In this document: positions 15,869 through 51,750 of the stretch, piece after piece
Position numbering within the stretch: position 1 is the first letter of the stretch
Layout: each line of letters opens with the position of its first letter
Source: a virus
Taxonomy: Duplodnaviria > Caudoviricetes
Reading direction: 5' to 3' (one strand)
Length of the DNA: 52,489 nt
Virus record (IMG/VR): IMGVR_UViG_3300022752_000102
Span: 1-52,489 of that record
Made by a program: the position numbers and the translations under genes
The notes under the pieces: generated by a model
Databases searched by the model: none
The model's input: only the letters and a program-made list of their open reading frames with translations
What the model was told of the DNA's origin: nothing

Positions 15869-17056
15869 ATGAGCGAAACAGCCACGCCCACCCAACCCGC
15901 AGAATCCAAAGGAGCAGATACTGTAAGTTTTGCCGACGCTTTGGATGTCGGAATCCAAGGCCTTGACACTCCCGCGCAGGAGACCAAAGCACCTGAACCT
16001 ATTGTAGAAAAAGCACAGGCCCCCGAGATTGCCAAGACAAAACCAACATCAAAGAATCCTTTTGATGTTGTTGCCGACAGGTTTTTAAATAAGGAACAAC
16101 CAGCAGAGACCCAAACAGACGATCTTGATGTAAAAGCTCCGGAAAATCTAAAGCCGGAAGCCCAAACTGCCTGGGCACGTTTAACCAAAGATCTTCGCGA
16201 TGCCCGGGCAAAGCTAAAAGAATTGGAAACAAAGTCAGCAGAAGTTCCCCAAAACTCCCTTGAACAGCAGGATCTAAAAGCTCAATTGGAGCTTTTGAAA
16301 GCCGAAAGGGATGAGTATGAGGGTGAACTTCGACTTTCCAGGTTGGAATCAACCAAAGAATACAAGCAGGCGGTAACCCAACCCCTCAACGCGATTCAGA
16401 AAGAAGTCGCCGATATTGCGGCTCTTTACGAGACTGACCCGCGAAATGTTTATTCGGCCATGCTGGAAACAGATCCTGCCAAACGTAGGGCTTTGTTGAA
16501 AGACGCGACAGCTAATTTCGATCCGGTTGATTCTTTGGCCATTCGCAATAAGGCGGAAGAGTTACAGAAAGTTTTCGAACGTCGCGATCTTTTGACTAAG
16601 GACGTGCGTACGGTTCTTGAAATGCTCGAGAACGATGAAAAACAAGAAATGGAAACATACCAAAAACGTATGCAAGACGAGATTAGCAATGCATACAAAA
16701 CAGAATGGGAGAACATTCAGAAGGAAAATCCTTTGTTGCGCCCAATCGAGAATAACGAATCCTGGAATAACACCTTGAAAGCTATTGAACAACAAGCTCT
16801 TGAGATTGAAAACACTGAACTTGCCCCCAATCAAAAAGCCAGGCTTACCTTTAATGCCGCGGCCCTTCCGGTGGTCATGGAAGTGTTTAGGGATTATGTT
16901 GCCAATGCCCAAAAGCGTATCTCTGAATTGGAAACGCTCAGTAAGGAGATTCGTGCCGCTACTCCTTCGGCGGGGACGGATGGAGCCAAATCCAGCGATA
17001 TCCCTTCGGATTTGGGCTTCCTGGACGCTCTTGAGCGTGGTATGACAAAAATGTAA
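15869..17056 (+). CDS. Capsid scaffolding protein
   Basis: Acidic, Pro-rich N-terminus, long coiled coils, low-complexity linker then a short C-terminal helix; immediately upstream of the MCP. Confidence 0.75.
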   Translation: MSETATPTQPAESKGADTVSFADALDVGIQGLDTPAQETKAPEPIVEKAQAPEIAKTKPTSKNPFDVVADRFLNKEQPAETQTDDLDVKAPENLKPEAQTAWARLTKDLRDARAKLKELETKSAEVPQNSLEQQDLKAQLELLKAERDEYEGELRLSRLESTKEYKQAVTQPLNAIQKEVADIAALYETDPRNVYSAMLETDPAKRRALLKDATANFDPVDSLAIRNKAEELQKVFERRDLLTKDVRTVLEMLENDEKQEMETYQKRMQDEISNAYKTEWENIQKENPLLRPIENNESWNNTLKAIEQQALEIENTELAPNQKARLTFNAAALPVVMEVFRDYVANAQKRISELETLSKEIRAATPSAGTDGAKSSDIPSDLGFLDALERGMTKM

Positions 17057-17063
17057 AAAGGTA

Positions 17064-17091
17064 TTGACACGTTCAATCCGGTTGATACTTT
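17064..17091 (+). promoter_or_regulatory. Capsid promoter TTGACA-N16-TACTTT with extended -10 TG
   Basis: TTGACA 17064-69, TG 17083-84, TACTTT 17086-91. Confidence 0.65.
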
Positions 17092-17094
17092 TAG

Positions 17095-17314
17095 TTTGTT
17101 CGGTGCAGGTATAAAGATTGAGACCCTTGTCGAACACGGCCTATAAAGATTGAAATGGCTGACAAACACGGGCATTAAAAGCTCTGGGATGCCGCCAGGG
17201 AATAGTTTTGAAAAGTGGTAAGAGCGAATAGCTCCGAGTGGAGTTAACGCTACTGCCGCAAATCATAACATCCCTTGCGCGAGCGGGGGATGGATGAAAG
17301 GATAACTAACTAAA
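17095..17314 (+). ncRNA. Structured 5' leader RNA of the major capsid gene
   Basis: About five stem-loops, including 17215-17259 and 17269-17292 (GCGA tetraloop); 12-nt repeat TATAAAGATTGA at 17110 and 17142. Confidence 0.55.
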
Positions 17315-18721
17315 ATGGCTACTACGTACTCCATCGAGCAGTTGCTCGTTAAGGAAGCTGGCCGTATCGGACCGGAGATTTATCGCCGGACGATCGACAC
17401 TTCCGCCTGGCTCAAGCTGACGAAGCAAGAGCAGTTCCCCGAGGAAATGGGTGATGTGATCAGCTCGATGACTTTCGAGCGGTTCTTCCCCTCCGCCTCC
17501 ATCAACACCTCGACTGCCACTATCGGCGGATATGTATCCGGCGAAGTGAATGCTTCTGCCGGTGCCGGATGGCGTAAACTCGGGTCTAACCCAGTCGACC
17601 AGAACTACACTGCGTTCAACCCCTACGACCAGACTATCTCTGGCGGTACCACTCCTCTCCCGGTGGCTTCTTACCCCGGCGGTGCGGGTAACGTTCTTCC
17701 CGCCACCCTCCAGGGTGTGACTTTCGGGCAGAAACTCCGTCAATACAGCCTGGAGTGGGCCTCGATCGAATCCCCCGACATCGCCCTCGAAGACTTGCGC
17801 TTCGCGGTCAAGCGTCGGGAACAGCTGTCCAACATCATGGACGTGCTGACCGAAAGCACCTCGCTGATCTGGCAGGAGCGCTATCGCGACCAGTATACCC
17901 GCAACGTGACCACGGAAGGTAACCTCGTTATCCCCGGCACGGCGGCTTCTGGTATCGTGCCTCAGACCACCTCGGTGTATGCTGGCGCGGTTTACTACGC
18001 TGTTCTTAGCGGCGTGTACACCTCCGGCGTCTCCGGTGCGTTTACGACCACCACCAACACCCTTCCGCAGAGCCAGCTGACTCAGGGCATCCTGAAGCGG
18101 CTGTACATGAAGCTCGTCCGCGACGGCGCTGGACGCAACGCCATGGGCCGTGAGAACGGCGCTCCGGTGTTCATGCTGATCACCTCCGCTGAAACCAGCG
18201 AGTCGATCATCCGCTTGAACGCTGACATCCGGCAGGATTACCGTTATGCGAAGCCCAATGAACTCTTGACCCCCCTGGGTATCGAGCGTTCCTACGGTGG
18301 CTTCTACCACGCCATTGATCCGTATCCCCCGCGGTTCGTCGTCGCGACGGTTACTTCCACGAATGACTCGATCATTCGGATCTATCCGTTCAAGCGCACT
18401 GCCACCACGAAGGGTTACGCCTATGACGTCAATCCTCGCTACGAGACGGCTGATTACGAGCTGAGCTACATCTTCCACCAGGATGTGTTTCGCTCCGTGG
18501 TTCCGACTCCGGTTAGCACCGCTAATAAGATGAACTTCAATCCGCAGAATTACCGCGGTGAGTTCAAATGGGTCAACATCCTCGACCGGCAGACCAATCC
18601 GGATGGTAACGTGGGTTACTTCCGTGGTGTGCTGGCCAACGGTGCGCGCCCGATCTTCCCGCAGTATGGTTATGCCATCCTGCACAAGCGGTCGGTGGTC
18701 AGCCTCGACTACGTTAGCTAA
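17315..18721 (+). CDS. Major capsid protein
   Basis: 468 aa after the scaffold; strong C-ending codon bias typical of high expression; own promoter; terminator two genes downstream. Confidence 0.85.
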   Translation: MATTYSIEQLLVKEAGRIGPEIYRRTIDTSAWLKLTKQEQFPEEMGDVISSMTFERFFPSASINTSTATIGGYVSGEVNASAGAGWRKLGSNPVDQNYTAFNPYDQTISGGTTPLPVASYPGGAGNVLPATLQGVTFGQKLRQYSLEWASIESPDIALEDLRFAVKRREQLSNIMDVLTESTSLIWQERYRDQYTRNVTTEGNLVIPGTAASGIVPQTTSVYAGAVYYAVLSGVYTSGVSGAFTTTTNTLPQSQLTQGILKRLYMKLVRDGAGRNAMGRENGAPVFMLITSAETSESIIRLNADIRQDYRYAKPNELLTPLGIERSYGGFYHAIDPYPPRFVVATVTSTNDSIIRIYPFKRTATTKGYAYDVNPRYETADYELSYIFHQDVFRSVVPTPVSTANKMNFNPQNYRGEFKWVNILDRQTNPDGNVGYFRGVLANGARPIFPQYGYAILHKRSVVSLDYVS

Positions 18722-19122: not shown

Positions 19123-19359
19123 ATGGCAAATATCTCTTTTCCTGTTCCCCAAGGTTTTACGCCCCCGGAGGGTGTTGCCCAAGGTCAACCCTTTGATTTT
19201 ATGGCCAGCGGCTATTTCAAAGGTCCGACCATGTATCTTACCGCCGTTGAAGGCGTTTCTGTAGGCGCTGCTCCCGAAATGGAAGAAGCCAAGGAAATGG
19301 AAGAAGCTGGCGAAGAGATGGGCATGGCCGAGGCTGTCGAAAAAGGTCTAGCCAAATAA
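19123..19359 (+). CDS. Small acidic protein with scaffold-like C-terminal motif
   Basis: 78 aa ending EEMGMAEAVEKGLAK. Confidence 0.75.
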   Translation: MANISFPVPQGFTPPEGVAQGQPFDFMASGYFKGPTMYLTAVEGVSVGAAPEMEEAKEMEEAGEEMGMAEAVEKGLAK

Positions 19360-19829: not shown

Positions 19830-20129
19830 ATGGCATGGAATGACGAAAATATTAGCCCGTCTGTAACACAAGAAACCGATTCCGCTCTTGTTTCTCTTGG
19901 GCAGAAAGGTTTTGTTTATGTTGATTCCACCGCCGCACAAACCGGAAATTTTGCTGCAATTCAAGTTATTGCTTCCGGTACAAGCACGTTTACGTCGCTG
20001 ACCGCTTTAAACTCTACTGTGGGGGCTTTAGGCACCACCGTTGCATTGACCGCCGGAACTATTATTTACGGGCCTTTTACGGCGTTTACGCTGGCTTCTA
20101 GCAGCAAAGTTATCGCCTACAAGGCTTAA
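19830..20129 (+). CDS. Small beta-rich virion/decoration protein
   Basis: RBS AGGAGG; Thr/Ala/Gly-rich; ends GTIIYGPFTAFTLASSSKVIAYKA. Confidence 0.6.
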   Translation: MAWNDENISPSVTQETDSALVSLGQKGFVYVDSTAAQTGNFAAIQVIASGTSTFTSLTALNSTVGALGTTVALTAGTIIYGPFTAFTLASSSKVIAYKA

Positions 20130-20135
20130 ACCGCC

Positions 20136-20999
20136 ATGCCGAAACTCGGCTTAGGTGTAAACTTGCCGGTTTTTAACATTGCCGGCGCTTATGATCCAGA
20201 CGCTCTGGCTTATGTCCAGACAGCTGGCGTGACGGATGCTACTGCAAAAATTCAAATTAATTCTTTTGTAAAAGGGGTTAAGGATCTTGGGATTTGGAGT
20301 TCTTTTGTATGTTGGCCTTTAATTAATACTCAACAGGGAAAAGTTGCTGGAGCTACATCCGGAACAATTTACAGTCTTGGCGGACTTGCGACATATAATG
20401 GCACGATGACCAACAATCCAACTATTAATACAAATGGGATTACATGTACCGGAACCAACCAATCATATATAGTTTTACCGACAGGGGCAACATTATTGGC
20501 TGTTAATCCAGTAACTTCTGGTGCTGTGTACAAAAGTTCCGGCACCGTATGGGCTTCAGCTATTCATTGGTTATACGGGAATTGGTATGGAGTAACAACA
20601 AATCAAAATAGCGGTGGGTGGTTTAGAGAGGGTTCCGGTGCGGGTGCCGGACTTTTAAACCAAATGCGGGGAAGCACAAATCTTTCAATTTTTGGCACAG
20701 ATGCGGAACAAACAACATTTGCGTTTCTGACAAATACAACCTCTGGTTCTGCATCTAACAACTCAATAAATTACAAAAATGGGACAGCAGTAAGCACACA
20801 AACCGTCCCGACAACCGTAAGCCCAGCACCCTCAGGGTCAGATTCGTACCGTGTCTGTTTTGCACAAAATTCGGCCACTTTTTCTGGAACAATGACATTT
20901 CATTTTGTAGCTCAAAACGTATTATTTACGTCTGGACAAGTATCTTCTTTTTATACTTTGTATAAAAATACTTTGGGAAGTTCCGTTGGCCTCCCCTAA
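20136..20999 (+). CDS. Virion structural protein, possible lectin/LamG-like C-terminal domain
   Basis: MPKLGLG start, DPDALAY...INSFVKG.KDLGIW module, Thr/Ser/Asn-rich beta region. Confidence 0.6.
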   Translation: MPKLGLGVNLPVFNIAGAYDPDALAYVQTAGVTDATAKIQINSFVKGVKDLGIWSSFVCWPLINTQQGKVAGATSGTIYSLGGLATYNGTMTNNPTINTNGITCTGTNQSYIVLPTGATLLAVNPVTSGAVYKSSGTVWASAIHWLYGNWYGVTTNQNSGGWFREGSGAGAGLLNQMRGSTNLSIFGTDAEQTTFAFLTNTTSGSASNNSINYKNGTAVSTQTVPTTVSPAPSGSDSYRVCFAQNSATFSGTMTFHFVAQNVLFTSGQVSSFYTLYKNTLGSSVGLP

Positions 21000-21044
21000 A
21001 ATTTAGTAATTGCAATTTACTTTTACAGCTGTAGTAAAGGTCAG

Positions 21045-21866
21045 ATGACAATTTATTACAGTTTCTGGGTGAGTCGTTTTCGTCCAGTAAACCTCAATTT
21101 AGACATGTGGAGATTGTCATTTGAGCTGGCAAAGAAAAATTATCCAAATACGCCAATCTGTCTTATAACCGACACAAAAAGCGCCGGATTATTCCGGAAC
21201 TTTGATTTTTCCGATGTTTCAACTGCCTTGGACGGGATACCTGATTTTCAGAAGATCTGGTCCTTGGGAAAAATTTATGCTTATCGTGAGGCCGCAAACA
21301 AAGGTCCTTTTTTACATTTGGACGCCGATGTGTTTTTATGGGCACCTTTGCCAGTTGCACTGACTGAATCTCCGATTTTTGTTCAATCTCCCGACAAACG
21401 AATTTGGGATGATCCAGGGTATATTTCTTTTGAGGAAGTGTTGAATAAACATGGAAAACTTCCGGAAGCATGGAAAGATATGCTGATTGCAGAGGATAAT
21501 TTCCACACTGTTAACATGGGCATATTTGGTGGAACTGACACAAATTTAATTCTAAATTATTGTAAGTTTGTTCTCGATATGATTGAAGATCCTGAGCATT
21601 TAAAATTATGGACAAACCCAAGTATCAATACATGCTTGGCCTGCATGATTGAGCAACTTAATCTTGTTTACTTTGCCAGACAACATGGTGTTGAGGTTAA
21701 TTATCTCTTGGACGATGTGAACGACTCCACCAGAAAATCGTACTTAAAGTATACCCATTTGATGAACGGGAAAGATAATCCAGCTGTTATGGCAGCTGTA
21801 TCCAAACGAGTGCAAACAAAACCATATAATTTAAGACCTAAATTTGTGGGAGTTGAGAGATGGTGA
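21045..21866 (+). CDS. DUF6734-like putative GT-A glycosyltransferase
   Basis: LITD, WSLGKIYAY, PFLHLDADVFLW (DxD), NMGIFGG, MIEQ, YTHL. Confidence 0.7.
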   Translation: MTIYYSFWVSRFRPVNLNLDMWRLSFELAKKNYPNTPICLITDTKSAGLFRNFDFSDVSTALDGIPDFQKIWSLGKIYAYREAANKGPFLHLDADVFLWAPLPVALTESPIFVQSPDKRIWDDPGYISFEEVLNKHGKLPEAWKDMLIAEDNFHTVNMGIFGGTDTNLILNYCKFVLDMIEDPEHLKLWTNPSINTCLACMIEQLNLVYFARQHGVEVNYLLDDVNDSTRKSYLKYTHLMNGKDNPAVMAAVSKRVQTKPYNLRPKFVGVERW

Positions 21867-22678
21867 CTGTGCCCAGTCATCACGGGCCGTTATTTTCTGC
21901 CATAGTCGCGGTAAAAGACCGCACGGACCGGCTTGAAATTATGCTTCCATCCTGGATGCGGTGTAATAAAATTTTTGATTTCGTGGTTGTTGACTGGAGT
22001 TCAAAAATTCCTGTTGTGGAGAGCCAAGTCATTCAGGAACAAATGTCTTATTATCCTAATTTAAAAATAATTCGTGTAGAAGATCAGGAGCATTTTTACA
22101 GATGCAAGGCGCTTAATCTTGCCAGAAAACATACTGATTCCAGAATAGCAATCCTTTTAAAGTTAGACGTTGATTATGTAAATATTGACCATGGTTGGAT
22201 GGATATATTAGACGGAAATAATATTTGGTACGATAAAAACACTAAAGCTCACGAACTGGGAGACTATTTTATTGTTGGATGTAATTTTAGTTTTTCTTCA
22301 TACGGATTTATGGCGGTAAACAAGTGGGCGTTCGATTTAACCGGCGGATTTAATGAGAATCTTTTACCCGTATGGGGATATGAGGATGAGGATCTTTATA
22401 CAAAATTATCACAAATAAAATGCCGCCCAGATGAAAAAAACATATTTAAAAAACGTTACTTGGAAAAACTTTCTTTTTTTCTGTTTGACAAATATATTTA
22501 TCATATCCCGCACGACCATGATACCAGAAAATCAAATATACCCGAAGAGTTAAAAAATTTAAACATTTGGGAGTTATGCGAGCTAAATAAAAAGAAAGCT
22601 GAAGATACGGTAGTCATTAGATCAAAGTATCAAATTATTGCTAACACAAAAAATTATATACGAGTGAAAGAATTATAA
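21860..22678 (+). CDS. Glycosyltransferase (GT2/GT7 galactosyltransferase-like)
   Basis: VVVDWSS, KALNLA, LKLDVD (DxD), GGFNE...WGYEDEDL. Confidence 0.85.
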   Translation: MVTVPSHHGPLFSAIVAVKDRTDRLEIMLPSWMRCNKIFDFVVVDWSSKIPVVESQVIQEQMSYYPNLKIIRVEDQEHFYRCKALNLARKHTDSRIAILLKLDVDYVNIDHGWMDILDGNNIWYDKNTKAHELGDYFIVGCNFSFSSYGFMAVNKWAFDLTGGFNENLLPVWGYEDEDLYTKLSQIKCRPDEKNIFKKRYLEKLSFFLFDKYIYHIPHDHDTRKSNIPEELKNLNIWELCELNKKKAEDTVVIRSKYQIIANTKNYIRVKEL

Positions 22679-22680
22679 TT

Positions 22681-22854
22681 ATGTTTTGTTGCCTTTGTAA
22701 AGATACGTTTTATGATTATGTCGTGGAGAACAACAATAGTCTTGGATATTGTGAAAAGCATCACAAACAAAAACTGGTGTTGCTAGGATATTGCCGTACC
22801 ATGGGAATTATCAATAAAAATTTGCAGTATATAGATCCAAAAGAACATGAGTGA
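22681..22854 (+). CDS. Small Cys/His protein, 57 aa (MFCCLC...YCEKH)
   Basis: Translated by hand; fills the gap between GT and DUF1796 genes; CxxC...CxxH pattern. Confidence 0.45.
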   Translation: MFCCLCKDTFYDYVVENNNSLGYCEKHHKQKLVLLGYCRTMGIINKNLQYIDPKEHE

Positions 22855-23653
22855 AAATTGCCATTATTGGGTTGAGCACAAAAGAGCTGAATGTGGGCTA
22901 CCAGCAGAGCAATCCGTCAATATCGCCGGAGTTGAGTCGTTCCTACTTTGCAAAAAACATTATGATTTTATGTCGGAGAAAATAGATCTTGATACTTTTG
23001 ATAGGACTATTGCCCCAAAAGTTATAAGTTTGGGGGCCTCCTGTTATCCATTTATGCGAATGAAAAATTTATTTTCCACGGAACGGTATTTATTTGATTC
23101 CTGTAGATGCAGCCATCAAGTATTATTAACAATGCTTAAATCAAAATTTAGAAATATTCTTAATCCCATCCCGGCAATTCCAAATCAAAATGCGGTACGG
23201 ATAGGGTTTTATGATGAGTACAGTGATTTTTGGGTTGGACATAGGAAACGGGAGCAAATGCCAGATATTGATGCAACTATACGAAGAAGAGCGAAAAGAT
23301 TTTTAGATCTTGTTTCCTCAAACGAGCACATTGTTTTTATAAGGCTACGAAATTATTACTTTGACCCATCAACGTTTCTGGAACCATGTAGTTCAGATGA
23401 AATAGTTAGTATGTTTGAAACGGAGTATGACCAAATTGTTTTAACTCTAAAAGAATTAGGATTTAAGAATTTTGAAGTTTTTTATATCATAAGTTCACCA
23501 ATACTTACTTTAGATGGATTTATTACCATTCCAGAAGGACCTATTTCAGAGTCAATGTACTGTTTGGAGGATCCGGAAAGTTTTAGTAATAAAAATTGGA
23601 AGGGTTGTTTTGATTTTTTAAACTCAATTTATAGTTTTCCAACTAAAGGTTGA
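22847..23653 (+). CDS. DUF1796-like (putative papain-like peptidase family) protein with N-terminal Zn-finger-like segment
   Basis: VISLGASC, YLFD, IRRRAKRFLDL, IVFIR; N-terminal C..C..LCKKH. Confidence 0.65.
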   Translation: MSENCHYWVEHKRAECGLPAEQSVNIAGVESFLLCKKHYDFMSEKIDLDTFDRTIAPKVISLGASCYPFMRMKNLFSTERYLFDSCRCSHQVLLTMLKSKFRNILNPIPAIPNQNAVRIGFYDEYSDFWVGHRKREQMPDIDATIRRRAKRFLDLVSSNEHIVFIRLRNYYFDPSTFLEPCSSDEIVSMFETEYDQIVLTLKELGFKNFEVFYIISSPILTLDGFITIPEGPISESMYCLEDPESFSNKNWKGCFDFLNSIYSFPTKG

Positions 23654-23684
23654 CTTATAGAAAAAACGGTTATTATCAGATTGT

Positions 23685-24077
23685 ATGAAGTTTAAAGTTT
23701 TATTGTTCTTAACAATACCCATATTATTTGTCTCGTGCGCTTCTACACGGACAACTTCATCGGGTTCTTTGACACTTCAGGCCACCACCGAGTCCGTCTT
23801 GAAGGCTCAGGCTATCGCTCGTTCCATTCCGGCCTGTAAGCCCGTAGCCGATGAGCTCGACAACACCAAGGATCAAATCCTCAAACTCCAATCCCAAGTT
23901 GACCAAAACTTTAAAGAGCGTTCAGAGATGGCCGCAAGGCTTGAATATCTTGAGGGAAAATACAGCAAGGCCGTCGGGTTGCTCTGGAAATGGCGTTTGA
24001 TCGGGATTGGGGGTATGCTGCTTTTACCTGCATTTTTGGCCTTGCGTAATTTCTTCCCATTTCTTAAACTATTATAA
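23685..24077 (+). CDS. Putative unimolecular spanin (lipoprotein with C-terminal TM)
   Basis: Lipobox LFVS-C, central coiled coil, C-terminal TM LIGIGGMLLLPAFLAL; first gene of the lysis cassette. Confidence 0.6.
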   Translation: MKFKVLLFLTIPILFVSCASTRTTSSGSLTLQATTESVLKAQAIARSIPACKPVADELDNTKDQILKLQSQVDQNFKERSEMAARLEYLEGKYSKAVGLLWKWRLIGIGGMLLLPAFLALRNFFPFLKLL

Positions 24078-24419: not shown

Positions 24420-24952
24420 TTTATGGCCTGGTTTTGGCGACTTTATTTGGGTTGGGTACCGGAGCCAGAGCTACTGAGGGAGTCCCGCAGACGCGAGAAG
24501 GAAGAGTTGAGGAAGTTATTCGAGTGGCTCGAGGAACCATTGGATGGCGAGAAGGACCTGGAAACTCCGGGCCCCTGGTGGACAAAATTTTAGCTTCAGT
24601 TGGGCTTGAAGGTACAAGGGCTCCATGGTGTGCGGCATGGGTGGTATATGTAGGCGATGAAGCGTTTGGCAAAGAAAAGAACCCCTACCCGCGTTCTGCT
24701 TGGAGTCCCGATTTCGTTAAAGCTCCGGAGTGGAACAGGGGCCGTGGAAAGAGGCCAGGCCCGTCCGACGCCTTTGGGATTTATTTTCCGAGTCTTGGCC
24801 GCGTGGCTCACACGGGTTTGGTGGAAAAGCTAGAGGGCAAGATGGTAGTTACTATTGAGGGTAACACCAATGACGACGGAAGTCGGGAGGGGGATGGGGT
24901 CTATCGCAAGCGCCGGTCCCTTGATACAATGCTTGCCAAGAGGTGGTTATGA
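24410..24952 (+). CDS. CHAP-domain peptidoglycan hydrolase with signal peptide
   Basis: APWCAAWV (Cys), VAHTGLVE (His), TIEGNT; N-terminal signal ending GARA. Confidence 0.85.
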   Translation: MRVIYGLVLATLFGLGTGARATEGVPQTREGRVEEVIRVARGTIGWREGPGNSGPLVDKILASVGLEGTRAPWCAAWVVYVGDEAFGKEKNPYPRSAWSPDFVKAPEWNRGRGKRPGPSDAFGIYFPSLGRVAHTGLVEKLEGKMVVTIEGNTNDDGSREGDGVYRKRRSLDTMLAKRWL

Positions 24953-44300: not shown

Positions 44301-47300
44301 GCGAACTATATGGTGGAGTTTGTTTCCAAGTCTTACGCAGAAGCCAACGATATTCTTGAGCCTGAAAAACTAAAGAAGATGTTGCTTTTAAGTCCGTTCT
44401 TCACGACCGCCAAAAACCCAGAAGCCAGGCTGAGGGTGTTTTACCATCATTTCTTGCCCGCTTATAATATGGCGCTTCCCAGGATTTTGGAGGCCGTCAA
44501 GGATGATTATAACATTACCCAGAAGGAACTGGAAGAAGCCAAAGCCAAGGTTGGCGAAATGAAGACACGTGGTCGCGCAAAAATTATTGCCGACGACTTT
44601 GAAAACATTGTGACAAAGAAGAGAAAGAAAGCTCCGATCAGGCAGGCCCCCAGAACCCTGAAGGATCTTGTTGCCCCGACAGCAAAAGAAATCATTAAGG
44701 AAACCAGTAATATTAAAGATCCGGCCATCCGGATTAAACTCAAGGAGATAGCAAGGTATATCAAAAGCCAGGCAATTATTGGACCGCTCAAGGAAAAAGG
44801 AATTCTTACCCCAAGGAAAACTGAAGGAACCCCGACAGCCGCACAAAAGTTACTCGAGTTTTATGAAATGTTTGAGGAAGGAACGGAGTTTATTGCTGAC
44901 GTTCGCCTATACATAAGCAACACAGCGAAAGAAAGTGAAAAAGCTATTTTAAGCGAATTTCTGGATAAAATTTTAGAGAAGCTTACGACCGTTTCCACAT
45001 TCTCGCGTGTCGTCACTTCTTTGGAGAGCATCGGCGGGACGAACAAGACCATCCAAAGGTTGATCCGAGATCCAAAAGAAAGCATAACCGAGTTCAAAAA
45101 AGAACTCCAGAGACTTTTCATTGACGGTACCACAATGCCGGAAAATCTTCGCCAGCAGGCGGCTGACTATCTGTCCAAGAGTCTTGAGGACATGGTTGCG
45201 GCCAAACGGAAAGAGGCGTTGACCAAACTGAAGGAACGTCTGGCAAAGACCGCGGAAAGAAAAACCAGAAAGGTTCGCTCCGCCATCGACAAGCTGATGG
45301 ATGCGGCCAACCTAGGACTGCTTACCGATCCGGAAATTTTCCAACAGATTCACATGAAACTTGGTCTCCCTGAATTTGGAGACAAGGAAAGAGCCAGGGT
45401 TAATGAAATGATTCTCAATCTGTCCAAGTACCCGGAAGGCCGGCTTCGTAATGCCAAGATCAGCGAAATTAATGACTACATAAAGACAGTTGCTCCGATC
45501 ACTTTTTCCAAGATAGCGCCGTCTTACCAGACGGCTAACCTTTTGAACGCAATTGGGTCCCTTGGAATTAACGCAACTTCGGCTATCAATGGAGTTGCTG
45601 TGGAAGGGCTACAGGCTTATGGCCTGGCTACCGCAAAACAAACTTTGGGAGGAAAGGAACAAAAACTCCAGGCACTTGGAATTAAAAAGGGAATCGAAGC
45701 CCTGCAAAATGCTTGGTTTTCGGAAAAAGGACTGGCTAGAAAAGCGGCGTCAGAAGTATGGAAACTTGGAAGATTCCCGACGGATTCGGCGGTGATGAAG
45801 GAATTTGGACAATTCAATATATTCGAGGCAATGCTTAAAGAAAAACAGGCTGCGGAGGCTGGGAAACGTGGCGATCAGGTGGCGGAACTTAAGGTAAAAC
45901 TTCCCTTTGGTGTCTCTCCCATAGCATCATTTCTCTCCAGACTCATCCCGCAGTTTGTCAAAAAATCCGGACCAGTTCAGGCGTTGTCAGAGGTTATAAG
46001 CAAAGAGGGTCGTGAACTTAAAATTAATCTTCAGGCAGAGTGGAAGCCCGAGCTTAAGTTTTTGCCGGAAAGATTAAAACAACCTGTTTTTGATATTGTC
46101 ACAAAATTGTTCCCCACAAAACTGATCGATACACCCTTGGCCCTGCGTCAACTTCCTTTCATGGAAAAAATGATGGAAGCCGGTTCCCCATATCTGAAAC
46201 TGATCACCAAAGTACCCATTGTTGGAAAATATCTTGGGAGGTTTGGTGGAATAGCGGACGTTCCTATTTATCCTTATAACTCAGCTTTAGGTTCTTATGT
46301 ATTATCGTCCAGGTTAATGGCGGCTTCCGATACGTTTATTAAGTTTGGAGCGAGGGACCTTGGAAGGGTGGTGGAGACTGCTTACCTTCTGGCCAAGGAG
46401 AATCCCGATGCAACAGAAGAGGAGTTCCTTGATCAAATGGCAATCAGGTTGAACCGCACTTCCGACAGTATCGAACGTGCCATGAAACTTGCCATGTCGG
46501 AAGCCAAGCAATTTGCTGAAAACGGGGAGATTGTTATGACCCCGGAAGATATCCTTTTGAGGGCTGATGAAATTTTGGATCAAAATATGCCCAAAGATGA
46601 GTTCACCAAACAGGTTATTGAACGAGCCAACGTGTACGCGCAAAGACTGTCCTTCCAGCAGGATTATGAAGGATACATAGGATTTATTGCCGGAAGTCTG
46701 GATGCGGTGGCAAAGCATTTCTGGGTATCCGCATCAATTCTAAAATTCTTAAGGACCAGCTCCGCGTTGGCAAATGAATTTTTAAATTACGCACCAGGTG
46801 TTTCTTTTTTAAGGTATTTCCGTGGAATGGGCGGTTTATTGGCACACACGGAAGCTACCAAACGCTTTTACCGTCCTCCGGCCATGCCTAACTCTTACCA
46901 AAGGGACATGCTCCGATCAAAGATGATCATAGGTCATTCCATGTATGGATTGATTATCGGATTGATTTGGTCTGCTCTTAACGACGACAAGGAGAATCCA
47001 TGGTTTTTTGTGCATTTCAAGGGCCCGAAAGATCCGGCCCAAAGGAAGGCGTTTTTCTCCGCTGGCGGGACATTGAAGTCCATGCAGATCGGTAAGTTTG
47101 GCGAACCCCTTATGATTGGCGGAGTCAAGGTAGCCGAGGGCCCTGTGTTCATCGCCTGGGAATCTTTATTCCCTGGAGCAACTGGATTCCTCATGCCGGT
47201 GGCCGCAACGGGAGAGGCTGTTAGATATGAAAAAAGATCCTTTGCGGAAGCCGCTCCATCTATTCTGGCCACCGCCGGACTTACTACCGGATTGGGAATT

Positions 47301-48074
47301 ATCGATATGGCAGTTCTCACTGGAGCGAGAAATTTGTTGCAGTTGGTGTCTCCTTCTTCGACCGCACAGGATACAATACGGAATTTTGCAACCCTGACCG
47401 GACAGCTCGCCGCCTCCTATGTTCCTTTCTACCCCAAACTTCGCGACTACGATGCTCTTTATGACGGGCTGATGGGACAGCCCCGGGCCAAGCTTTATAA
47501 AGATGGCTTTGCTTCTTACTTCCTATCCAGCTTCCCCATTGTCTCCAGGTTCGGGGATCAGGATCTCGACTTCCTCGGAGGCCAGGTATCCACTGATGTG
47601 ATCAATACCGTACCCCTAGTCAAACGTTTCTTCAAACTTGGTGTATCCGGATCCGAGTATGATCGGGCAGCCATACCAACTGATCAACAAATCCACGACA
47701 AACTCATCTCCCTTTTCGCAAAACACGGGCGCAGAATCAACTGGGATGCCGGATCCCTTAATGATATTGCCCAAATAGAAATGGCTCAACAGGCGGCACA
47801 GGGGATCCCCGTGGACAAATCCGTCTATGAAATCCTTGCCTTGACCCGCGATTTGACGGAGGATGAAAAATACGAGTGGGTAAAGCTTGCCGGTCCTCTC
47901 ATCCAGGCCGATCTTTCCAGGCTAATCCCGAACCTAGAAGCAGCCGAGGATGCCGCCGAGTTTGATTTCATCCTGGATAAGATGTCGAATGTAAGTGCGA
48001 TCAAACGAAACGTGTTGAGGGCGATACTGATCCGCAAATTCTCCGAGGGAATTATGCGGGACGAGTTGCCTTGA
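35358..48074 (+). CDS. Giant polyvalent internal virion protein (4238 aa) with SF2 helicase (strawberry-notch/DarB-like) and zincin HExxH domains
   Basis: LGDSAGLGKT, LIDEAH, LASGTP, IQAVGRTWR; IMHEVVH; hydrophobic C-terminal region typical of large ejection proteins. Confidence 0.8.
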   Translation: MADTPINPEEQDQQQTQPNPVAPAVPVTEPQPAVPFSLEDQAKAIMENLPPSIDLEAQAKAVYDIPSPYEGFASEVIKVAEDPVGRGILSNLKHAIESGELKEHYGKAYDYFLTGPDLQDPMDKAMEAKKNGDALGFTKGFLGFLANLTGNYFNLAVGRSKEDSKAAALSNEADTLIGKIRDPKVASRAIELGEMYLSKLDNGQSIISKDQEPKFIVKADSRGGAGPEPSISGYNFGMNLAEAEKYLKQLEEDQNATLSSSALRVFATTGVDALPFVTAGNIYIDDETDPEQVAKRRALTHKINEVIRNKYYGPSVAGSVAGSLGGFVGAGKLATKLIGTPAVVGGRSIQIPNSFSRWGTYAIYGGGEALEDTRDLPWSDRLLDVAENIVKIGVSERIGEAGGTYVERLASTKLAHTGLTASIPGLTPVTRNAAFLTGGITSETISNQIDRVLAGQAPLPGLGEDAATASGAVFGMYLIGKGANLFTKPGIETRIFDQAKRQFSDGFGQFIDRINESTDLTYNQKRKLISDTLKNLPTQELKDLFTAKMAERAAAKNADVAPQTLKVAQEIVEKTEGPALVSILKVEADKQEKEAKAKKEGVSVTKEAAKIEAPALTQEELEVRAESFGDWIYSTLIDLPQGTELTISRTPQNEPLLSILEKRGIIYGEKDTENFIVKAAYDKTKTKLAGPKDFAPDLKAENAVESGRALLEDIQKLKPMDPNEVDRIEASFDEATSESEVNQIIKQFASIEDSHNKQNDEILATFKEPKKVATIQSQIRALNKQITQLERDVLTVPTAQKAQTEKQLEDLKLKRDGLVNERENIEGLGMRAVQLKIEDSIDALIEQKKITKEEADLIPENITLHINNPKSGSYQRYQLALADPERVKLLTDPQQTLAIFGAKNKLKKYELADLGAINEVGEVLQTPQEVIESFLEGKKRWLTGEDFKGYPNLYDVVYNGVKDELQLEVLEGKTNLNMNLVFFRRLYSAIRMYKVRKARNMGIDFASSLDSETEGPKVEAEAAGVLTEQKAGPAALVGQAEEKFDEEDKAFADKISRERREGFIKQLSDPKWGDQNNKIIFEELVFPAETGTIMTREDRAAKISDISARTKLSVPEILTKENFLRNEFVSFLKADVQVHEAQKEVRRSLTRREPPRRTTEMSEQDKEIVSVLEQFRAIQKQMERENYFLVRDIKNPDGSIRHVDESAIIEKLSDQARNSRSQDDLLKYVSYLNDIRKRTLTPENLNPWLQGIEETYDSTAGQTPEALRSDFRNQIDQAKENYLESQQSSDEAIRLEGAARFRSRIIELGNELVRSTGRYEITKSGEYRLKGGTGTSTAGGGPGLARAAIEQARAKLNAGATAERRGLRRVKDSPGNISEPLKGRRYRKDPTLSEEEVESGNFGTPIAKRVVALPEQVASIVPEATMEKLKKATKPIVWKALNEDQRKTFARIMLALNTKNGSHYLGDSAGLGKTRPILAVADYSASQNSPVVILTDSSALTPDWRKNDPGGSLGKDAKEMGIKLDFRGVAERPLPDKLAPGEILLTTFQYIDQLKEKGLVTPQTVLLIDEAHKLNGNGVWAETGASLMQTAKKVLLASGTPFETFEQMTRAFRRLGIFGEGGIAEDNLEKVLGFKTYRTRGGRGEETLRAKPDKKLLSVMLEKDIVKLERQRVEAKNLIAKLRTQKDFSVANMTAAVNSLSAVDGVLGVTEEDQQRRIRGFLGQLAKANLYSASSMSLEGVTIDQVFLPLDEEIKRKLGVLNAQGGGSANTDGKRKEALEMAHRYALELYKVPTAVDLTFKALGRGEKIIVFVEQVKQPKSTTGILDKPSAIVFEEMLRVEAAKRGIPVEIAKMYDPKISGQKKKDALRSFQGGNANVLIATKETAGTGGELDDKFGPEKGGKPRYVIFLANPFSAIQFIQAVGRTWRRLTASYPKAVLLTTNAAADRIVADLRTTKDILLGATLNTNISELGKAESLEPQPEAKPSEEIVLEGELPETKGIVRARSARQKVKPAKKTDQKAIQDFMTRLRSWVDMNLTDTARNPTKEVIAALKGRPSDILEEIIQKDGQKVFEAFGTRSYPVITDFIEKLSPQFSFGRSANDIIQEFTEYVYENKPIAKIAEKPESPAVDEDASDKHEDNYIPKDLTKEQELLVKELEDEVKKVYKSDYKNGVLTITDRKGKQSFNVQFVLGAEATATPGSSDDTDVITLGVNFFKEEKNTRGKKFQDYLKNVIMHEVVHVKTFRVIRDELKRAGKKGSFADLIKFFEDFYDSLDQNTIEKSVKLYHALAGRGAYTGKELQEQMSLFATNKLLVSAELMAQLLGINVFGKTTELALAPNRAAYNRAKARQDALFVEEAQKSPVREKFKMFFNAAETALASLRGISSKAAYVPADFDKEIKNALDQLNNRVSGYAEAVEEKAEERKEISKLSRYHLEFENNVEKMRDLEFRDDLTPEEEAKYDKLKRRQSDLQRLIIEEESKPYVNIPPEAGKTNPFPSEEPNRFNFSTLRVARMIDLAENGLVSKIFNTDVQQDLYGKFLPWAEFAGSIRNVEAYNILHPTEIYLMRWALDQYASKKNVIYLSDLKQSVLESAEDMEEMNKLLPESIFIRDDQALPEEIMERAQFESSEDREKPTDLYYVRVSNLPAESVWGKSNKHATARLVFRILGRGQTIYYEGKAYSTRSAGPALIKVLEAQDPTFKIFAKKKPYLSAPPIEEPEMVISQGGANWLARVLDVIPNEEIRNRLEANLTYKKLTNEETKQRALDYINEVSKRPDGFNKLVRQFLNDTFPRRTPLVIRTAIGFQIANLLAQRASDGDANAQELMAQVSMVLQDRHMIDPGRAIQYLWQGPDLAADALAFTKVLESQIEAAAKLRMEPYIPYLEQTTEEIAKADLEAGDAFASSPQVQDIVSQIQRFEKLKQNAAEELAQLNSEMANMVMASESRFADIFSDVISPVGLPPSNTTGGDNLGFDDVIVNKLANYMVEFVSKSYAEANDILEPEKLKKMLLLSPFFTTAKNPEARLRVFYHHFLPAYNMALPRILEAVKDDYNITQKELEEAKAKVGEMKTRGRAKIIADDFENIVTKKRKKAPIRQAPRTLKDLVAPTAKEIIKETSNIKDPAIRIKLKEIARYIKSQAIIGPLKEKGILTPRKTEGTPTAAQKLLEFYEMFEEGTEFIADVRLYISNTAKESEKAILSEFLDKILEKLTTVSTFSRVVTSLESIGGTNKTIQRLIRDPKESITEFKKELQRLFIDGTTMPENLRQQAADYLSKSLEDMVAAKRKEALTKLKERLAKTAERKTRKVRSAIDKLMDAANLGLLTDPEIFQQIHMKLGLPEFGDKERARVNEMILNLSKYPEGRLRNAKISEINDYIKTVAPITFSKIAPSYQTANLLNAIGSLGINATSAINGVAVEGLQAYGLATAKQTLGGKEQKLQALGIKKGIEALQNAWFSEKGLARKAASEVWKLGRFPTDSAVMKEFGQFNIFEAMLKEKQAAEAGKRGDQVAELKVKLPFGVSPIASFLSRLIPQFVKKSGPVQALSEVISKEGRELKINLQAEWKPELKFLPERLKQPVFDIVTKLFPTKLIDTPLALRQLPFMEKMMEAGSPYLKLITKVPIVGKYLGRFGGIADVPIYPYNSALGSYVLSSRLMAASDTFIKFGARDLGRVVETAYLLAKENPDATEEEFLDQMAIRLNRTSDSIERAMKLAMSEAKQFAENGEIVMTPEDILLRADEILDQNMPKDEFTKQVIERANVYAQRLSFQQDYEGYIGFIAGSLDAVAKHFWVSASILKFLRTSSALANEFLNYAPGVSFLRYFRGMGGLLAHTEATKRFYRPPAMPNSYQRDMLRSKMIIGHSMYGLIIGLIWSALNDDKENPWFFVHFKGPKDPAQRKAFFSAGGTLKSMQIGKFGEPLMIGGVKVAEGPVFIAWESLFPGATGFLMPVAATGEAVRYEKRSFAEAAPSILATAGLTTGLGIIDMAVLTGARNLLQLVSPSSTAQDTIRNFATLTGQLAASYVPFYPKLRDYDALYDGLMGQPRAKLYKDGFASYFLSSFPIVSRFGDQDLDFLGGQVSTDVINTVPLVKRFFKLGVSGSEYDRAAIPTDQQIHDKLISLFAKHGRRINWDAGSLNDIAQIEMAQQAAQGIPVDKSVYEILALTRDLTEDEKYEWVKLAGPLIQADLSRLIPNLEAAEDAAEFDFILDKMSNVSAIKRNVLRAILIRKFSEGIMRDELP

Positions 48075-48102: not shown

Positions 48103-48702
48103 ATGCCAGACGCACCCAAACAAAAAATGACCTCGCAAGAGGCGTTTGATCTTCTCAAAAACTACGAGAAGTTCTCGCCAACCGTCTATCCCGACAAGGG
48201 CGGAGTAGCCACAATCGGTTATGGACTGACAAAGTATGAGTTTCCTGGTTTGACTTTGCAGAGCACAAACGTTTTGACAGAACCCCAAGCTGCCAAAATG
48301 CTTCAAGATAAATTGGAAAACAAATTTATTCCAAGGGTACAAGAACTTGTGTCAGTCCCCCTGACAACCAATCAACTCGGAGCCTTGGCTAGCTTCATGT
48401 ACAATGTGGGAGAGCCCAATTTCACATCCAGCACGCTTAGGAAAAAATTAAATGCCGGAGATTTTGAAGGCGCTCTCAAAGAGTTTCCAAGATGGAACAA
48501 GGTAAGAAATAAGGACACCGGAAAGCTTGAGCCAGCGGCAGGATTGACTGACAGGCGGCAGGCAGAGATGGCTTTGTTCAGCGGGGACATGCAGGAGCTT
48601 GGAAGAAAACTGGAGCTAAAGAAGTTTGGTCCTCCTGGCTACGCCGCGGGTTATATACCAAAGAAGGGTTCCGTTGTAAAATCTTCGGGAGGGTCCAGAT
48701 AA
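48103..48702 (+). CDS. GH24 phage lysozyme (muramidase)
   Basis: YEKF...YPDKGGVATIGYG (E-D-T triad), ALASFMYNVG, SSTLRKKLNAGD, FPRWNK, GLTDRRQAE. Confidence 0.92.
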   Translation: MPDAPKQKMTSQEAFDLLKNYEKFSPTVYPDKGGVATIGYGLTKYEFPGLTLQSTNVLTEPQAAKMLQDKLENKFIPRVQELVSVPLTTNQLGALASFMYNVGEPNFTSSTLRKKLNAGDFEGALKEFPRWNKVRNKDTGKLEPAAGLTDRRQAEMALFSGDMQELGRKLELKKFGPPGYAAGYIPKKGSVVKSSGGSR

Positions 48703-50216: not shown

Positions 50217-50222
50217 AGATCC

Positions 50223-50378
50223 ATGCCCCTAGGTAAAAGCGTTTCAGCCAACATCCGCGAGCTCTACGCGGATAACAAGAAAAAAGGAAAGGCCCGTGGG
50301 GCCGGCGGAACGCCGCGCCCAAAGGCCCAAATCATTGCCATAGCATTGAGAGCAGCTGGCAAATCGAAAGGTAAATAA
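50223..50378 (+). CDS. Small basic protein, 51 aa, MPLGK N-terminus
   Basis: Hand translation MPLGKSVSANIRELYADNKKKGKARGAGGTPRPKAQIIAIALRAAGKSKGK; not in the ORF track. Confidence 0.8.
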   Translation: MPLGKSVSANIRELYADNKKKGKARGAGGTPRPKAQIIAIALRAAGKSKGK

Positions 50379-50379
50379 T

Positions 50380-50928: not shown

Positions 50929-50934
50929 GTTCCT

Positions 50935-51165
50935 ATGCCACTTGGGAAAGTTGATTACCGGGAACAGTACGTTAAATACCACAGTGGAACCCGGCAGAAA
51001 AAAGACAGGGCCCATAGGAACAAGGTAAGGAGGATGATGATCCGTAAGCACGGTAAGCAAGCCCTCAATGGAAAACATGTCGACCACAAGGACGGCAATC
51101 CAAGAAACAATCGCCCAAGCAATCTTCGGATTGTTTCGGCCCACACCAACAGGGTAAAACAATGA
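50935..51165 (+). CDS. HNH endonuclease with MPLGK N-terminus
   Basis: HVDHKDGNPRNNRPSNLRIVSAHTNR. Confidence 0.88.
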   Translation: MPLGKVDYREQYVKYHSGTRQKKDRAHRNKVRRMMIRKHGKQALNGKHVDHKDGNPRNNRPSNLRIVSAHTNRVKQ

Positions 51166-51323
51166 AAATGGGATTTGAAAAGCTTACGCGAAGCCTGGCA
51201 GGAAAGGGGGCTGAAAATCCCAAGGCGCTTGCCGCCTGGATTGGCCGCAAGAAATACGGCAAAGAAAAATTCCAGCAGATGTCCCAAAAGGTTCACAACA
51301 AGGGCCGCGGCCTGGGTAAATAA
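51162..51323 (+). CDS. Small basic protein, 53 aa, ending GRGLGK
   Basis: Hand translation MKMGFEKLTRSLAGKGAENPKALAAWIGRKKYGKEKFQQMSQKVHNKGRGLGK; ATGA overlap with the HNH gene. Confidence 0.8.
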   Translation: MKMGFEKLTRSLAGKGAENPKALAAWIGRKKYGKEKFQQMSQKVHNKGRGLGK

Positions 51324-51324
51324 G

Positions 51325-51750
51325 ATGCCCGCCAAGCCCTGTCCCCGCGAGACCCAAGACATTGCGGCCAACCTTGCCAATCGCAAGAAGGCAATCAAAA
51401 CGGCCTTATACGGGCCCCTTAACCCAAATGAACCCAACGAAGACTACTGGACAAAGCTTGGTGAAGAGTTTGGCACGTCGGCAGAGGAGGCAAAGAAATC
51501 GCGTTGCGGCAACTGTGCGGCTTTCAATGTTACCACCAGGATGCAGGAATGTATTGCTTCCGGCCTCAAGGAACGCGGAGGGGACGAGTGGGAGGTGGTA
51601 AATGCCGGGCAGCTTGGATACTGCGAAGCTTTTGATTTTAAGTGCGCGGCAGCAAGGAGTTGCAAAGCGTGGATTGTAGGGGGGCCGATCGATGATTCGA
51701 AGGCCAATGAGCGGATGGGTTTTGTTGAGGCGGTGGAAGAGGGAGCTTAA
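51325..51750 (+). CDS. Cys-rich protein (HiPIP-like C-x2-C...C...C-x2-W) with scaffold-like C-terminal motif
   Basis: ATG 51325 after the previous stop; RCGNCAAF...GYC...CAAARSCKAW; ends RMGFVEAVEEGA. Confidence 0.75.
   Translation: MPAKPCPRETQDIAANLANRKKAIKTALYGPLNPNEPNEDYWTKLGEEFGTSAEEAKKSRCGNCAAFNVTTRMQECIASGLKERGGDEWEVVNAGQLGYCEAFDFKCAAARSCKAWIVGGPIDDSKANERMGFVEAVEEGA

Follow-up and report, generated by a model that had tools for sequence, protein, structure and literature searches.

A scaffold-like C-terminal motif on small proteins of a tailed phage: a candidate tag for docking inside the capsid

Three proteins encoded by the tailed-phage record IMGVR_UViG_3300022752_000102 end in one and the same short motif. 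They are a putative internal scaffolding protein of 395 amino acids (aa), an acidic protein of 78 aa, and an accessory cysteine-rich (Cys-rich) protein of 141 aa. The complete IMG/VR viral record spans 52,489 bases and was analysed over its full length, which is called the window throughout. Judged by their sequences, the three tails represent a single conserved motif and are not a product of chance, and the motif very probably serves as a shared functional docking peptide of some kind. Our preferred reading, to which we assign a probability of about 0.5, is that the peptide is portable, binds the major capsid protein (MCP), and loads the proteins that carry it into the procapsid; the identity of the scaffold, the binding partner and the encapsidation itself are matters that we infer.

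Signals that seal proteins inside phage heads are known for only a few model phages, where they are short terminal peptides lacking a recognisable consensus. Here a candidate can be read directly from the sequence. The tag is conserved across a family with hundreds of MCP representatives, and it has once been newly attached to an accessory domain.

The three tails

The motif-bearing proteins and the copies of the motif that they carry are located as follows:

15869..17056, plus strand: the 395-aa putative internal scaffold (net charge -21, without Cys), encoded between the presumed portal and the MCP
17012..17041, plus strand: C-terminal motif of the scaffold, LGFLDALERG, 4 residues before the stop
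15923..15952, plus strand: degenerate second copy of the motif, VSFADALDVG, scaffold residues 19-28
19123..19359, plus strand: 78-aa acidic protein, net charge -9, in which residues 1-45 form a conserved N-domain, joined to the tail by a variable acidic linker
19318..19347, plus strand: C-terminal motif of the 78-aa protein, MGMAEAVEKG, 3 residues before the stop
51325..51750, plus strand: accessory Cys-rich protein, 141 aa, 7 Cys; in a cluster of small genes 3' of a gene for a 4238-aa protein
51715..51744, plus strand: C-terminal motif of the Cys-rich protein, MGFVEAVEEG, 1 residue before the stop and beyond the usual end of the domain (GGP...)

A strict form of the motif, [LM]G[FMLIV]x[DE]A[LVI]ExG, has exactly three matches in the six-frame translation of the window, at 17012-17041, 19318-19347 and 51715-51744, and these lie 4, 3 and 1 residues before the stop codons of plausible genes; the narrower [LM]G[FM]x[DE]A[LV]ExG likewise matches three times and no more. 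They are the same three tails, at the same positions, that had been reported in an earlier reading of the DNA letters alone (hereafter the original prediction). The scaffold open reading frame (ORF), 15869-17056, ends in DLGFLDALERGMTKM, ORF 19123-19359 ends in EEMGMAEAVEKGLAK, and ORF 51325-51750 ends in ERMGFVEAVEEGA. The motif is predicted to form a short acidic amphipathic helix located 1-7 residues from the C-terminus, with the core F/M-hydrophobic-x-A/S-hydrophobic-E-x-G-hydrophobic; for the scaffold tail, the helical hydrophobic moment falls from 1.40 at 100 degrees to 0.33 at 160 degrees.

The frequency of such matches was gauged by permuting residues within each of 50 hand-picked ORF products (16,539 aa) in 5000 shuffles. 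The strict pattern never appeared (0/5000), while a looser core gave a mean of 0.107 matches anywhere and 0.0024 in the last 16 residues, with three C-terminal matches again in 0/5000 shuffles. Because the pattern was built from the same sequences, these figures overstate the significance, and the independent evidence comes from conservation in relatives (see below). A looser C-terminal pattern picks out the scaffold and the 78-aa protein in all nine genomes scanned, namely the window and eight near-complete relatives; the same scan also picks the Cys-rich protein of the window and gives one weak extra match in relative G005. When whole genomes are considered, the core pattern occurs at the C-terminus of essentially only the scaffold and one to three small proteins.

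The original prediction held that the tails are spelled with different codons. This is true of the scaffold and the Cys-rich protein, where none of the five identical residues has the same codon, but it fits less well for the scaffold and the 78-aa protein (three of four the same) or for the 78-aa and Cys-rich proteins (three of seven). Nucleotide identity between the tail copies is 16-21 of 33, and with few common codons as well, the tails are not recent DNA copies of each other.

Conservation among close and distant relatives

A scan with the 468-aa MCP yielded 20 loci from close relatives at 71-78% identity. The scaffold tail reads F[LV][DE]ALERG[LM], followed by 1-3 residues, in all 20, and the 78-aa protein ends in M[GS]MV[EDQ]AVE[KQ]G plus 1-7 residues in every one of the 16 close loci that reach its gene. 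In an alignment of 22 scaffolds, residues F384, A387 and E389 show no variation and at least 90% of the sequences retain G391, while the Pro/Gly/Ser-rich linker that precedes the tail varies. The architecture of the 78-aa protein given above derives from a 19-sequence alignment, in which the tail of the most distant sequence is misaligned by MAFFT. No family match was obtained for this protein in Pfam, PHROGs or NCBIfam, and the ESM Atlas gave just unnamed viral clusters.

Thirteen genomes of the capsid family were examined, and all 13 encode a homologue of the scaffold as well as the N-domain of the 78-aa protein, whose gene lies inside the block of head genes. The tail of the 78-aa protein differs consistently from that of the scaffold, with M/V in place of F/L at the hydrophobic positions. 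By these comparisons the 78-aa tail is as old and as conserved as the scaffold tail. The original prediction had the scaffold helix copied onto the other two proteins, a description that suits the Cys-rich protein and does not suit the 78-aa protein, given the age of its tail and the presence of its gene throughout the 13 genomes.

A profile scan added 17 loci from four further clades, with MCP identity falling from 57% to 29%, and scaffold homologues were located in four whole genomes of these distant clades (G013, G011, G014 and G015). Their tails are:

Clade B (G013): scaffold tail DVGFLEALEKGIGSGR; 114-aa protein ending in EDFVKTIEEGLKNED; 76-aa homologue of the 78-aa protein ending in RDFVDSVETGLA
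Clade C (G011): scaffold tail DVSFLDALEKGLR; tagged small proteins ending in RMAFVDSVEKGFEL and GDFVDSIETGMS
Clade D (G014): scaffold tail GLSFLDAIEAGIGS; tagged small protein ending in PDFMAAVEKGFADAKDEAVG
Clade E (G015): scaffold tail PGSFLDAIESRFSGKAA; tagged small protein ending in RQSFLAAVEEKLKSVA

The small-protein tails of the distant clades include DFVDSVETGL, DFVDSIETGM, DFMAAVEKGF and SFLAAVEEKL. An extra tagged protein of 114-128 aa (MMESILLVLPGGK...) is encoded just 3' of the MCP in clade B (L158, L159, L161, L162, L164) and in clade C (L150-L153). It ends in DFVK[AT]IEEGL or AFVDSVEKGF and is absent from the clade of the window, and since it too is tagged, the head block of clades B and C encodes three tagged proteins. 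The deep MCP alignment offered no stretch of sufficient conservation for scanning. Of two further scans for farther relatives, one found no locus and the other found two; the one of these that was examined, the still more distant L194, has no tagged small protein within 3.5 kb.

One clade shows a joint departure. In clade E the second Gly is lost from both tails (G to R and G to K), and in the N-terminal arm (N-arm) of its MCP, GP has changed to SD and R24 to Q. This joint change of tail and N-arm is a single event and at most hints at compensation. Across the sequences as a whole, all copies of the motif bear the mark of purifying selection, and the linkers before the tails vary freely.

The Cys-rich protein and its appended tail

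The start of the Cys-rich gene is placed at ATG 51325, in agreement with the N-termini of its homologues, although the open frame itself begins with TTG at 51175. The domain is not described in Pfam, PHROGs or NCBIfam, but IMG/VR holds at least 598 homologous stretches. Tails were counted in the best 80 of these at least 598 loci: beyond the conserved GGP, 44 of them stop within 13 residues, another 15 run on for 14-70 residues, and the remaining 21 are joined to more than 70. The core motif is found within the last 18 residues of a single one of the 80, L021, which is the copy from G006, a genome of the same capsid clade. Its tail, KKSFVDAVEEQV, has Q in place of the last G, so it is missed by the looser pattern and recovered by the core pattern. 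The tails of 14-70 residues were also compared with the other C-termini of the same locus (15 loci, with flanks of at most 3 kb that lack scaffolds), and the scores were at noise level.

Within the capsid family the Cys-rich gene is present in 2 of 13 genomes, the window and G006, and a genome search recovered it in 1 of 10 relatives. Both in-clade copies carry the tail (2/2), against none of the 79 other homologue loci listed, so that the tail accompanies the domain solely where the resident scaffold bears the matching motif. The sequences therefore describe a widespread accessory module, and its tail is a lineage-specific appendage. That the tail occurs solely in this lineage, and on both copies there, is the strongest argument for a functional, transferable add-on matched to the resident capsid.

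The partners to which the Cys-rich domain is fused elsewhere point in the same direction. In L058 (3001-5688) the N-terminal module is joined to a prohead serine protease of family S78 and an HK97-type capsid protein. Other fusions involve XkdF-type proteases (L045, L050), DUF5824 (L054, L056), DUF6321 (L051) and an ADP-ribosyltransferase (L082); the eighth protein scanned, L022, gave no match. ADP-ribosyltransferases are described among injected phage proteins, as in the case of Alt (PMC5512222). Several of the fusion partners reside inside proheads or get injected, as expected for a protein that bears a loading tag. The original prediction of such a tag gains from the confinement of the Cys-rich tail to this capsid lineage and from the fusion of the domain to capsid-interior proteins elsewhere; binding to the MCP, its other component, is something we infer.

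The putative scaffold and its second motif copy

The plus-strand arm of the window begins with a 577-aa ORF, followed by a 758-aa presumed portal, a 93-aa ORF and the 395-aa acidic putative scaffold. The 577-aa ORF has a weak match to a large-terminase PHROG (E 9.3e-06). The two genes that stand between it and the scaffold are:

13299..15575, plus strand: presumed portal, 758 aa, directly 3' of the 577-aa terminase-like ORF; identity taken from size and gene order
15572-15853, plus strand: 93-aa ORF between the presumed portal and the scaffold, found in 12 of the 13 family genomes

No match to the presumed portal was found in Pfam, PHROGs, NCBIfam or PDB sequences, and none to the 93-aa ORF in the families of Pfam, PHROGs and NCBIfam; the 93-aa protein is a possible assembly partner.

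The naming of 15869..17056 as the scaffold in the original prediction agrees with its position, its acidity, its lack of Cys and its helix-prone sequence, which is rich in A, E, L and K and has many helix-prone stretches in a crude propensity scan. It finds no echo in family or structure searches (Pfam, PHROG, NCBIfam and PDB sequences). On position and composition we regard the 395-aa protein as a putative internal scaffold. Its gene lies directly upstream of the MCP gene in the window and in all 20 close relatives. In clade C (L150-L153 and G011) the scaffold homologue is set apart from the MCP by intervening genes, including an 860-aa ORF, which indicates that the head module has been rearranged there.

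The degenerate copy at scaffold residues 19-28 is part of an N-terminal block that is conserved in all aligned scaffolds, where it takes forms such as SFADAFDAGF, LSLADALDAGI, MGLLEALDAQL, SWLDRLDNVF and PMLGRLDALF. In the more distant scaffold of L194, GFLDGL occurs close to the N-terminus and DFMAGLDAVL ends the chain, and the small protein of clade D likewise begins with a motif-like sequence, MPGLEDAMAAA. The tag is thus often paired on one chain, which suggests multivalent binding. The original prediction leaned on P22-type phages, in which the C-terminus of the scaffold is the coat-binding element, and a model of purely that type does not predict the N-terminal copy.

The major capsid protein as candidate receptor

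The proposed partner of the motif and its candidate docking surface are:

17315..18721, plus strand: MCP, 468 aa, HK97 fold; proposed receptor of the motif
17333..17464, plus strand: N-arm of the MCP (residues 7-50), its best-conserved segment and a candidate docking surface

That 17315..18721 encodes the MCP, as originally predicted, was confirmed with AlphaFold2 and Foldseek as a protein of HK97 fold. The AlphaFold2 model, built on a 144-sequence alignment, has a mean predicted local distance difference test score (pLDDT) of 82.6 and a predicted template modelling score (pTM) of 0.82, with a long helix at residues 167-200. A Foldseek search of this model against the PDB returned 202 matches at E <= 0.001, the best being the capsid of phage N4 (9lbz_d, E 1.6e-12), and every match listed is a phage or satellite capsid entry. 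The model supersedes a first one made from 23 sequences (pLDDT 49.6, best Foldseek E 4.6e-03). The protein has no match in Pfam, PHROG or NCBIfam and no PDB sequence match by profile, and its family comprises 755 representatives at E <= 0.001. By the modelled structure, then, the 468-aa protein is an HK97-fold MCP from an undescribed sequence family, closest in fold to N4.

The N-arm stands out in its conservation. Its identity to the window is 95-100% in close relatives, compared with 72-78% for the whole MCP, and in progressively farther relatives the corresponding values are 75-77% versus 49-53%, 61-66% versus 36%, and 52% versus 29%. In phage 80alpha, the 16 C-terminal residues of the scaffold form an amphipathic helix and hook on helix alpha-1 of the capsid N-arm (PMC5644958), and in P22 the scaffold's C-terminal helix-turn-helix is described as acting on the coat N-arm, with further coat-binding sites elsewhere in the scaffold (10.1101/2022.12.13.520362). 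By analogy with these two systems, the N-arm is a candidate for the docking role here.

When the MCP was co-folded with scaffold residues 346-395, the score came to 0.41 (runs of 0.43, 0.00 and 0.41), compared with 0.00 for the highest of three controls. Of 80 solved complexes used for calibration, 58 reached the mark, as did 2 of 110 mismatched pairs; the range at or below 0.60 held just 7 of the 80 solved complexes together with both of those mismatched pairs. Agreement between the runs covers at least 7% of contacts, the pLDDT of the partner is at least 38, and no interface was returned. The co-fold covered the scaffold tail alone and says nothing direct about the tails of the 78-aa and Cys-rich proteins. 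The original prediction that the peptides dock on the MCP draws weak support from the scaffold tail in this comparison (0.41 versus 0.00, with no interface), which shifts the odds towards the MCP as binding partner without establishing binding.

Proposed mechanism and alternative explanations

In the preferred reading, the motif would be the terminal element of the internal scaffold, a protein with a degenerate copy near its N-terminus. The same peptide, on a variable acidic linker, would end the small protein that is encoded two genes 3' of the capsid gene in every relative, and it would also have been appended to an accessory Cys-rich domain in the window phage and one relative. A single site, most probably the conserved N-arm of the MCP, would serve all of the tagged proteins, and they would co-assemble into the procapsid alongside the scaffold or in competition with it. 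More tentatively, one may propose that a single sequence-readable tag loads any protein into the procapsid and was grafted onto a horizontally acquired Cys-rich domain, a wider reading that we hold to be plausible without favouring it; in this case the two-ended scaffold and the small two-part proteins might act as multivalent cross-linkers of the capsid N-arms.

Several observations weigh against docking on the MCP and loading into the procapsid. The co-fold is weak, with one of the three runs at 0.00, an uncertain fold for the partner and no contacts. The identities of the scaffold and portal rest on gene order, with no family or structure match to either. The motif copy near the N-terminus of the scaffold is unexpected under the P22/80alpha model and fits self-association of the scaffold equally well. 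Co-variation is almost absent since the motif is nearly invariant, which also makes the check proposed in the original prediction, that the tag should co-vary with the scaffold tail, nearly uninformative; the sole joint change is found in the most distant clade. The 80alpha hook, as the paper on that system presents it, is basic (RIIK), whereas the helix here is acidic (F-x-x-A-x-E-x-G), and the two have no sequence likeness. Finally, most stand-alone homologues of the Cys-rich protein are tail-less (44/80), which would mean either that they are not packaged or that their packaging is independent of a tail.

The alternative that survives best is a docking tag with some other receptor: the scaffold core, through homotypic helix bundling, or else the portal or the 93-aa protein, with cargo riding in with the scaffold core. 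We consider this rather unlikely, though it accounts for several features. The motif is found at both ends of the scaffold, and motif-like sequences at both ends of the clade D small proteins, an arrangement suited to bivalent cross-linking or to self-association. No role has been assigned to the 93-aa protein, which 12 of the 13 genomes conserve, and the MCP co-fold is weak. Internal proteins of T4 are thought to enter with the scaffold core. Going by the P1 paper (PMC9024508), the receptor of the short terminal targeting peptides of T4 and P1 is not the shell lattice. On the other hand, no other part of the MCP is as conserved as the N-arm, which parallels the conservation of the tails, the co-fold score of 0.41 compares with 0.00 for the three controls, and the solved precedents, as described, put scaffold C-termini on the capsid N-arm.

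The 78-aa protein may alternatively be a regulator and not cargo, acting as a competitor or co-scaffold that tunes the occupancy of the scaffold, the curvature or size of the shell, or the release of the scaffold; such a protein need not remain in the virion. This seems to us unlikely, although its gene is present in 13 of 13 genomes within the head block, the protein is highly acidic like the scaffold, and the M/V of its tail, compared with F/L in the scaffold, is as expected for a different affinity. The SaPI1 protein CpmB is described as acting in this way against the 80alpha scaffold (PMC5644958). In the case of the 78-aa protein the data fit a regulator and cargo alike; the fusions of the Cys-rich domain point to cargo for that protein at least.

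Very improbable is a likeness without shared function, whether it arose by chance or from composition or is the relic of an old duplication of the scaffold 3' end. In its favour, the motif spans no more than about 10 residues, A, E, L and V abound in all three of the acidic proteins, and the pattern used in the shuffles was post hoc. Against this stand the stop-proximal position and the near-invariant core, maintained across clades down to 29% MCP identity while the linkers diverge, the gain of the tail by the Cys-rich domain just in this lineage, and the near absence of the C-terminal pattern elsewhere in whole genomes.

The window also encodes a protease that might recognise C-terminal peptides:

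54-1043, minus strand: HtrA-like protease; Trypsin_2 (E 1.2e-23) and PDZ_2 (E 1.6e-07; 31.9 bits, cut-off 27)

It is scarcely credible that the tail is a recognition tag for this protease, which would remove or process the scaffold along with the tagged proteins, standing in for a prohead protease. In its favour, PDZ domains of HtrA proteases bind C-terminal peptides, a Trypsin_2 and PDZ_2 protein is indeed encoded, and no classical prohead protease family was found among the ORFs of the window or 62 ORFs of the complete relative G006. Against it, the HtrA-like protease is present in 8 of 13 genomes (undetected in G002 and in the four more distant motif-bearing genomes), and its gene lies among replication genes on the opposite strand. 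Moreover, the very last residues, the ones that PDZ domains usually read, vary (TKM, LAK, EGA, GLK, NEMA and others), the conserved block lying 1-7 residues inward. This candidate reader of the tail was downgraded on account of its absence from 5 of the 13 motif-bearing genomes. A T4-type cleavage site (L/I-x-E) was likewise set aside; by eye the tails are unlike it, and no prohead protease was found.

Comparison with known systems

Reuse of a scaffold tail by a second protein has a precedent in SaPI1, where CpmB carries a tail homologous to that of the 80alpha scaffold and competes for the same site on the capsid (Dearborn et al. 2017, PMC5644958). In both cases a second protein bears the extreme C-terminal helix of the scaffold; the site on an HK97-fold N-arm was solved by cryo-electron microscopy for 80alpha and is proposed here. 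The 80alpha tail is also modular, in that tail swaps are described as having worked. CpmB differs in being encoded by a satellite, while here the tagged genes are part of the phage's own genome; the window thus has scaffold-homologous tails, as in SaPI1, and does not have them on a satellite-encoded, size-redirecting element. The present system further differs in that up to three non-scaffold proteins are tagged, one of them an accessory domain, and in that the scaffold has an N-terminal copy.

In T4, the N-terminal targeting signal is removed by the prohead protease. Short N-terminal peptides of T4 IPIII and P1 DarB send proteins, heterologous reporters included, into the head, from which they are delivered with the DNA (Gonzales et al. 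2022, PMC9024508), and the P1 Dar proteins have no consensus among their N-termini as far as that paper describes. Such signals are N-terminal and unlike the scaffold, whereas the motif here is C-terminal on all three proteins, recognisable in the sequence and common to the scaffold. What comes nearest in nature to such steering of a foreign protein is the addition of the tail to the accessory Cys-rich domain in this lineage alone. A point of likeness to T4 and P1 is that genes for a giant helicase-domain protein and for a cluster of small proteins, likely packaged, are found in the window.

Other short C-terminal peptides, set behind a flexible linker, dock cargo or a protease on the interior of HK97-fold shells, namely the cargo-loading peptides of encapsulins, the C-terminus common to the herpesvirus protease and scaffold, and the C-terminal tail of the HK97 protease. 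Encapsulins have no portal, scaffold or DNA, the shared herpesvirus tail arises from nested genes, and HK97 has no separate scaffold. The arrangement of domain, linker and tail with an HK97-fold shell, as in encapsulins, is found in the window, but the shell is not a DNA-free one that lacks portal, terminase and tail.

The helix-turn-helix of the P22 scaffold is basic, and engineered P22 cargo fusions are a synthetic counterpart of the natural tagging proposed here. It measures about 30 residues, and no other P22 protein is reported to carry it in the account of Dedeo et al. 2022. Phage N4 packages a giant protein whose C-terminal region of 1,400 aa is required for encapsidation (PMC5512222). 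The N4 capsid (Schitoviridae) is the best match to the fold of the MCP, and the 4238-aa protein of the window occupies a comparable place; that said, there is no relation to N4 at the sequence level, and the giant protein here is of the SNF2/helicase kind and not an RNA polymerase.

In the open-access literature searched, no report was found of a phage's own non-scaffold proteins sharing the tail of its scaffold. New here are the N-terminal copy in the scaffold, the second tagged small protein of some clades, and the Cys-rich tail confined to this lineage. If the proposed role is true, it provides a rule for predicting packaged proteins in this lineage, so that the set of packaged proteins could be deduced from genome sequence, and it represents natural reuse of a scaffold tail within one genome, unlike the reuse by a parasite in SaPI1. 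With its linker, the motif would then also offer a small tag of 10-15 residues by which cargo could be loaded into HK97-fold shells, and be a natural counterpart, inside a real virus, of engineered scaffold-fusion cargo and encapsulin loading peptides. Should the receptor not be the MCP, the two-ended scaffold would still indicate an unusual logic of assembly.

Genome context and further observations

The relatives of the window in IMG/VR are contigs of 67-82 kb, several of which carry terminal repeats; by this comparison the window is probably a fragment. Its left arm, on the minus strand, encodes a family A DNA polymerase, helicases, nucleases and the HtrA-like protease with its PDZ domain, an unusual gene to find in such replication company. 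On the plus-strand arm, the 468-aa MCP is followed by small ORFs, lysis and tail genes, the 4238-aa protein, a lysozyme and a cluster of small genes. The terminase-like ORF, the tail and virion proteins, the lysis genes and the family A DNA polymerase identify the window as part of a tailed phage. When 50,697 phage records were searched by tblastn with the MCP, the scaffold, the presumed portal and a distant representative of the MCP, no cultured relative was found.

The 4238-aa ORF (35358-48074, plus strand) has ResIII/SNF2/helicase matches around residues 1441-1965 and is followed by the lysozyme (48103-48702) and then the small genes. Its placement recalls the packaged "polyvalent" giants, such as P1 DarB and the N4 polymerase; the motif is not present at its C-terminus.

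Two further features lie between the head genes and the giant ORF. Positions 20000-24000 of the window form a low-GC (guanine plus cytosine) island, at 0.35-0.42 versus about 0.49 elsewhere, which contains DUF6734, a glycosyltransferase-like ORF and a match to the DUF1796 papain-like peptidase, and which was probably acquired separately from the head genes. A PD-(D/E)XK endonuclease ORF (24943-25362, plus strand; PDDEXK_5, E 3.8e-15) lies between a CHAP-domain lysin and the tail genes and is also found in relative G006.

Four small, mostly basic ORFs on the plus strand, starting at 48702, 49191, 50223 and 50935, begin with MPLGK. This N-terminus is found on one to four ORFs in 11 of the 13 family genomes and is absent from the two most distant. 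One of the MPLGK ORFs is an HNH endonuclease, and another matches a PHROG annotated "minor head protein and DNA pilot". The Cys-rich gene lies inside the MPLGK cluster, yet its own product begins with MPAKP. The MPLGK N-terminus may be the other label that the original prediction mentioned.

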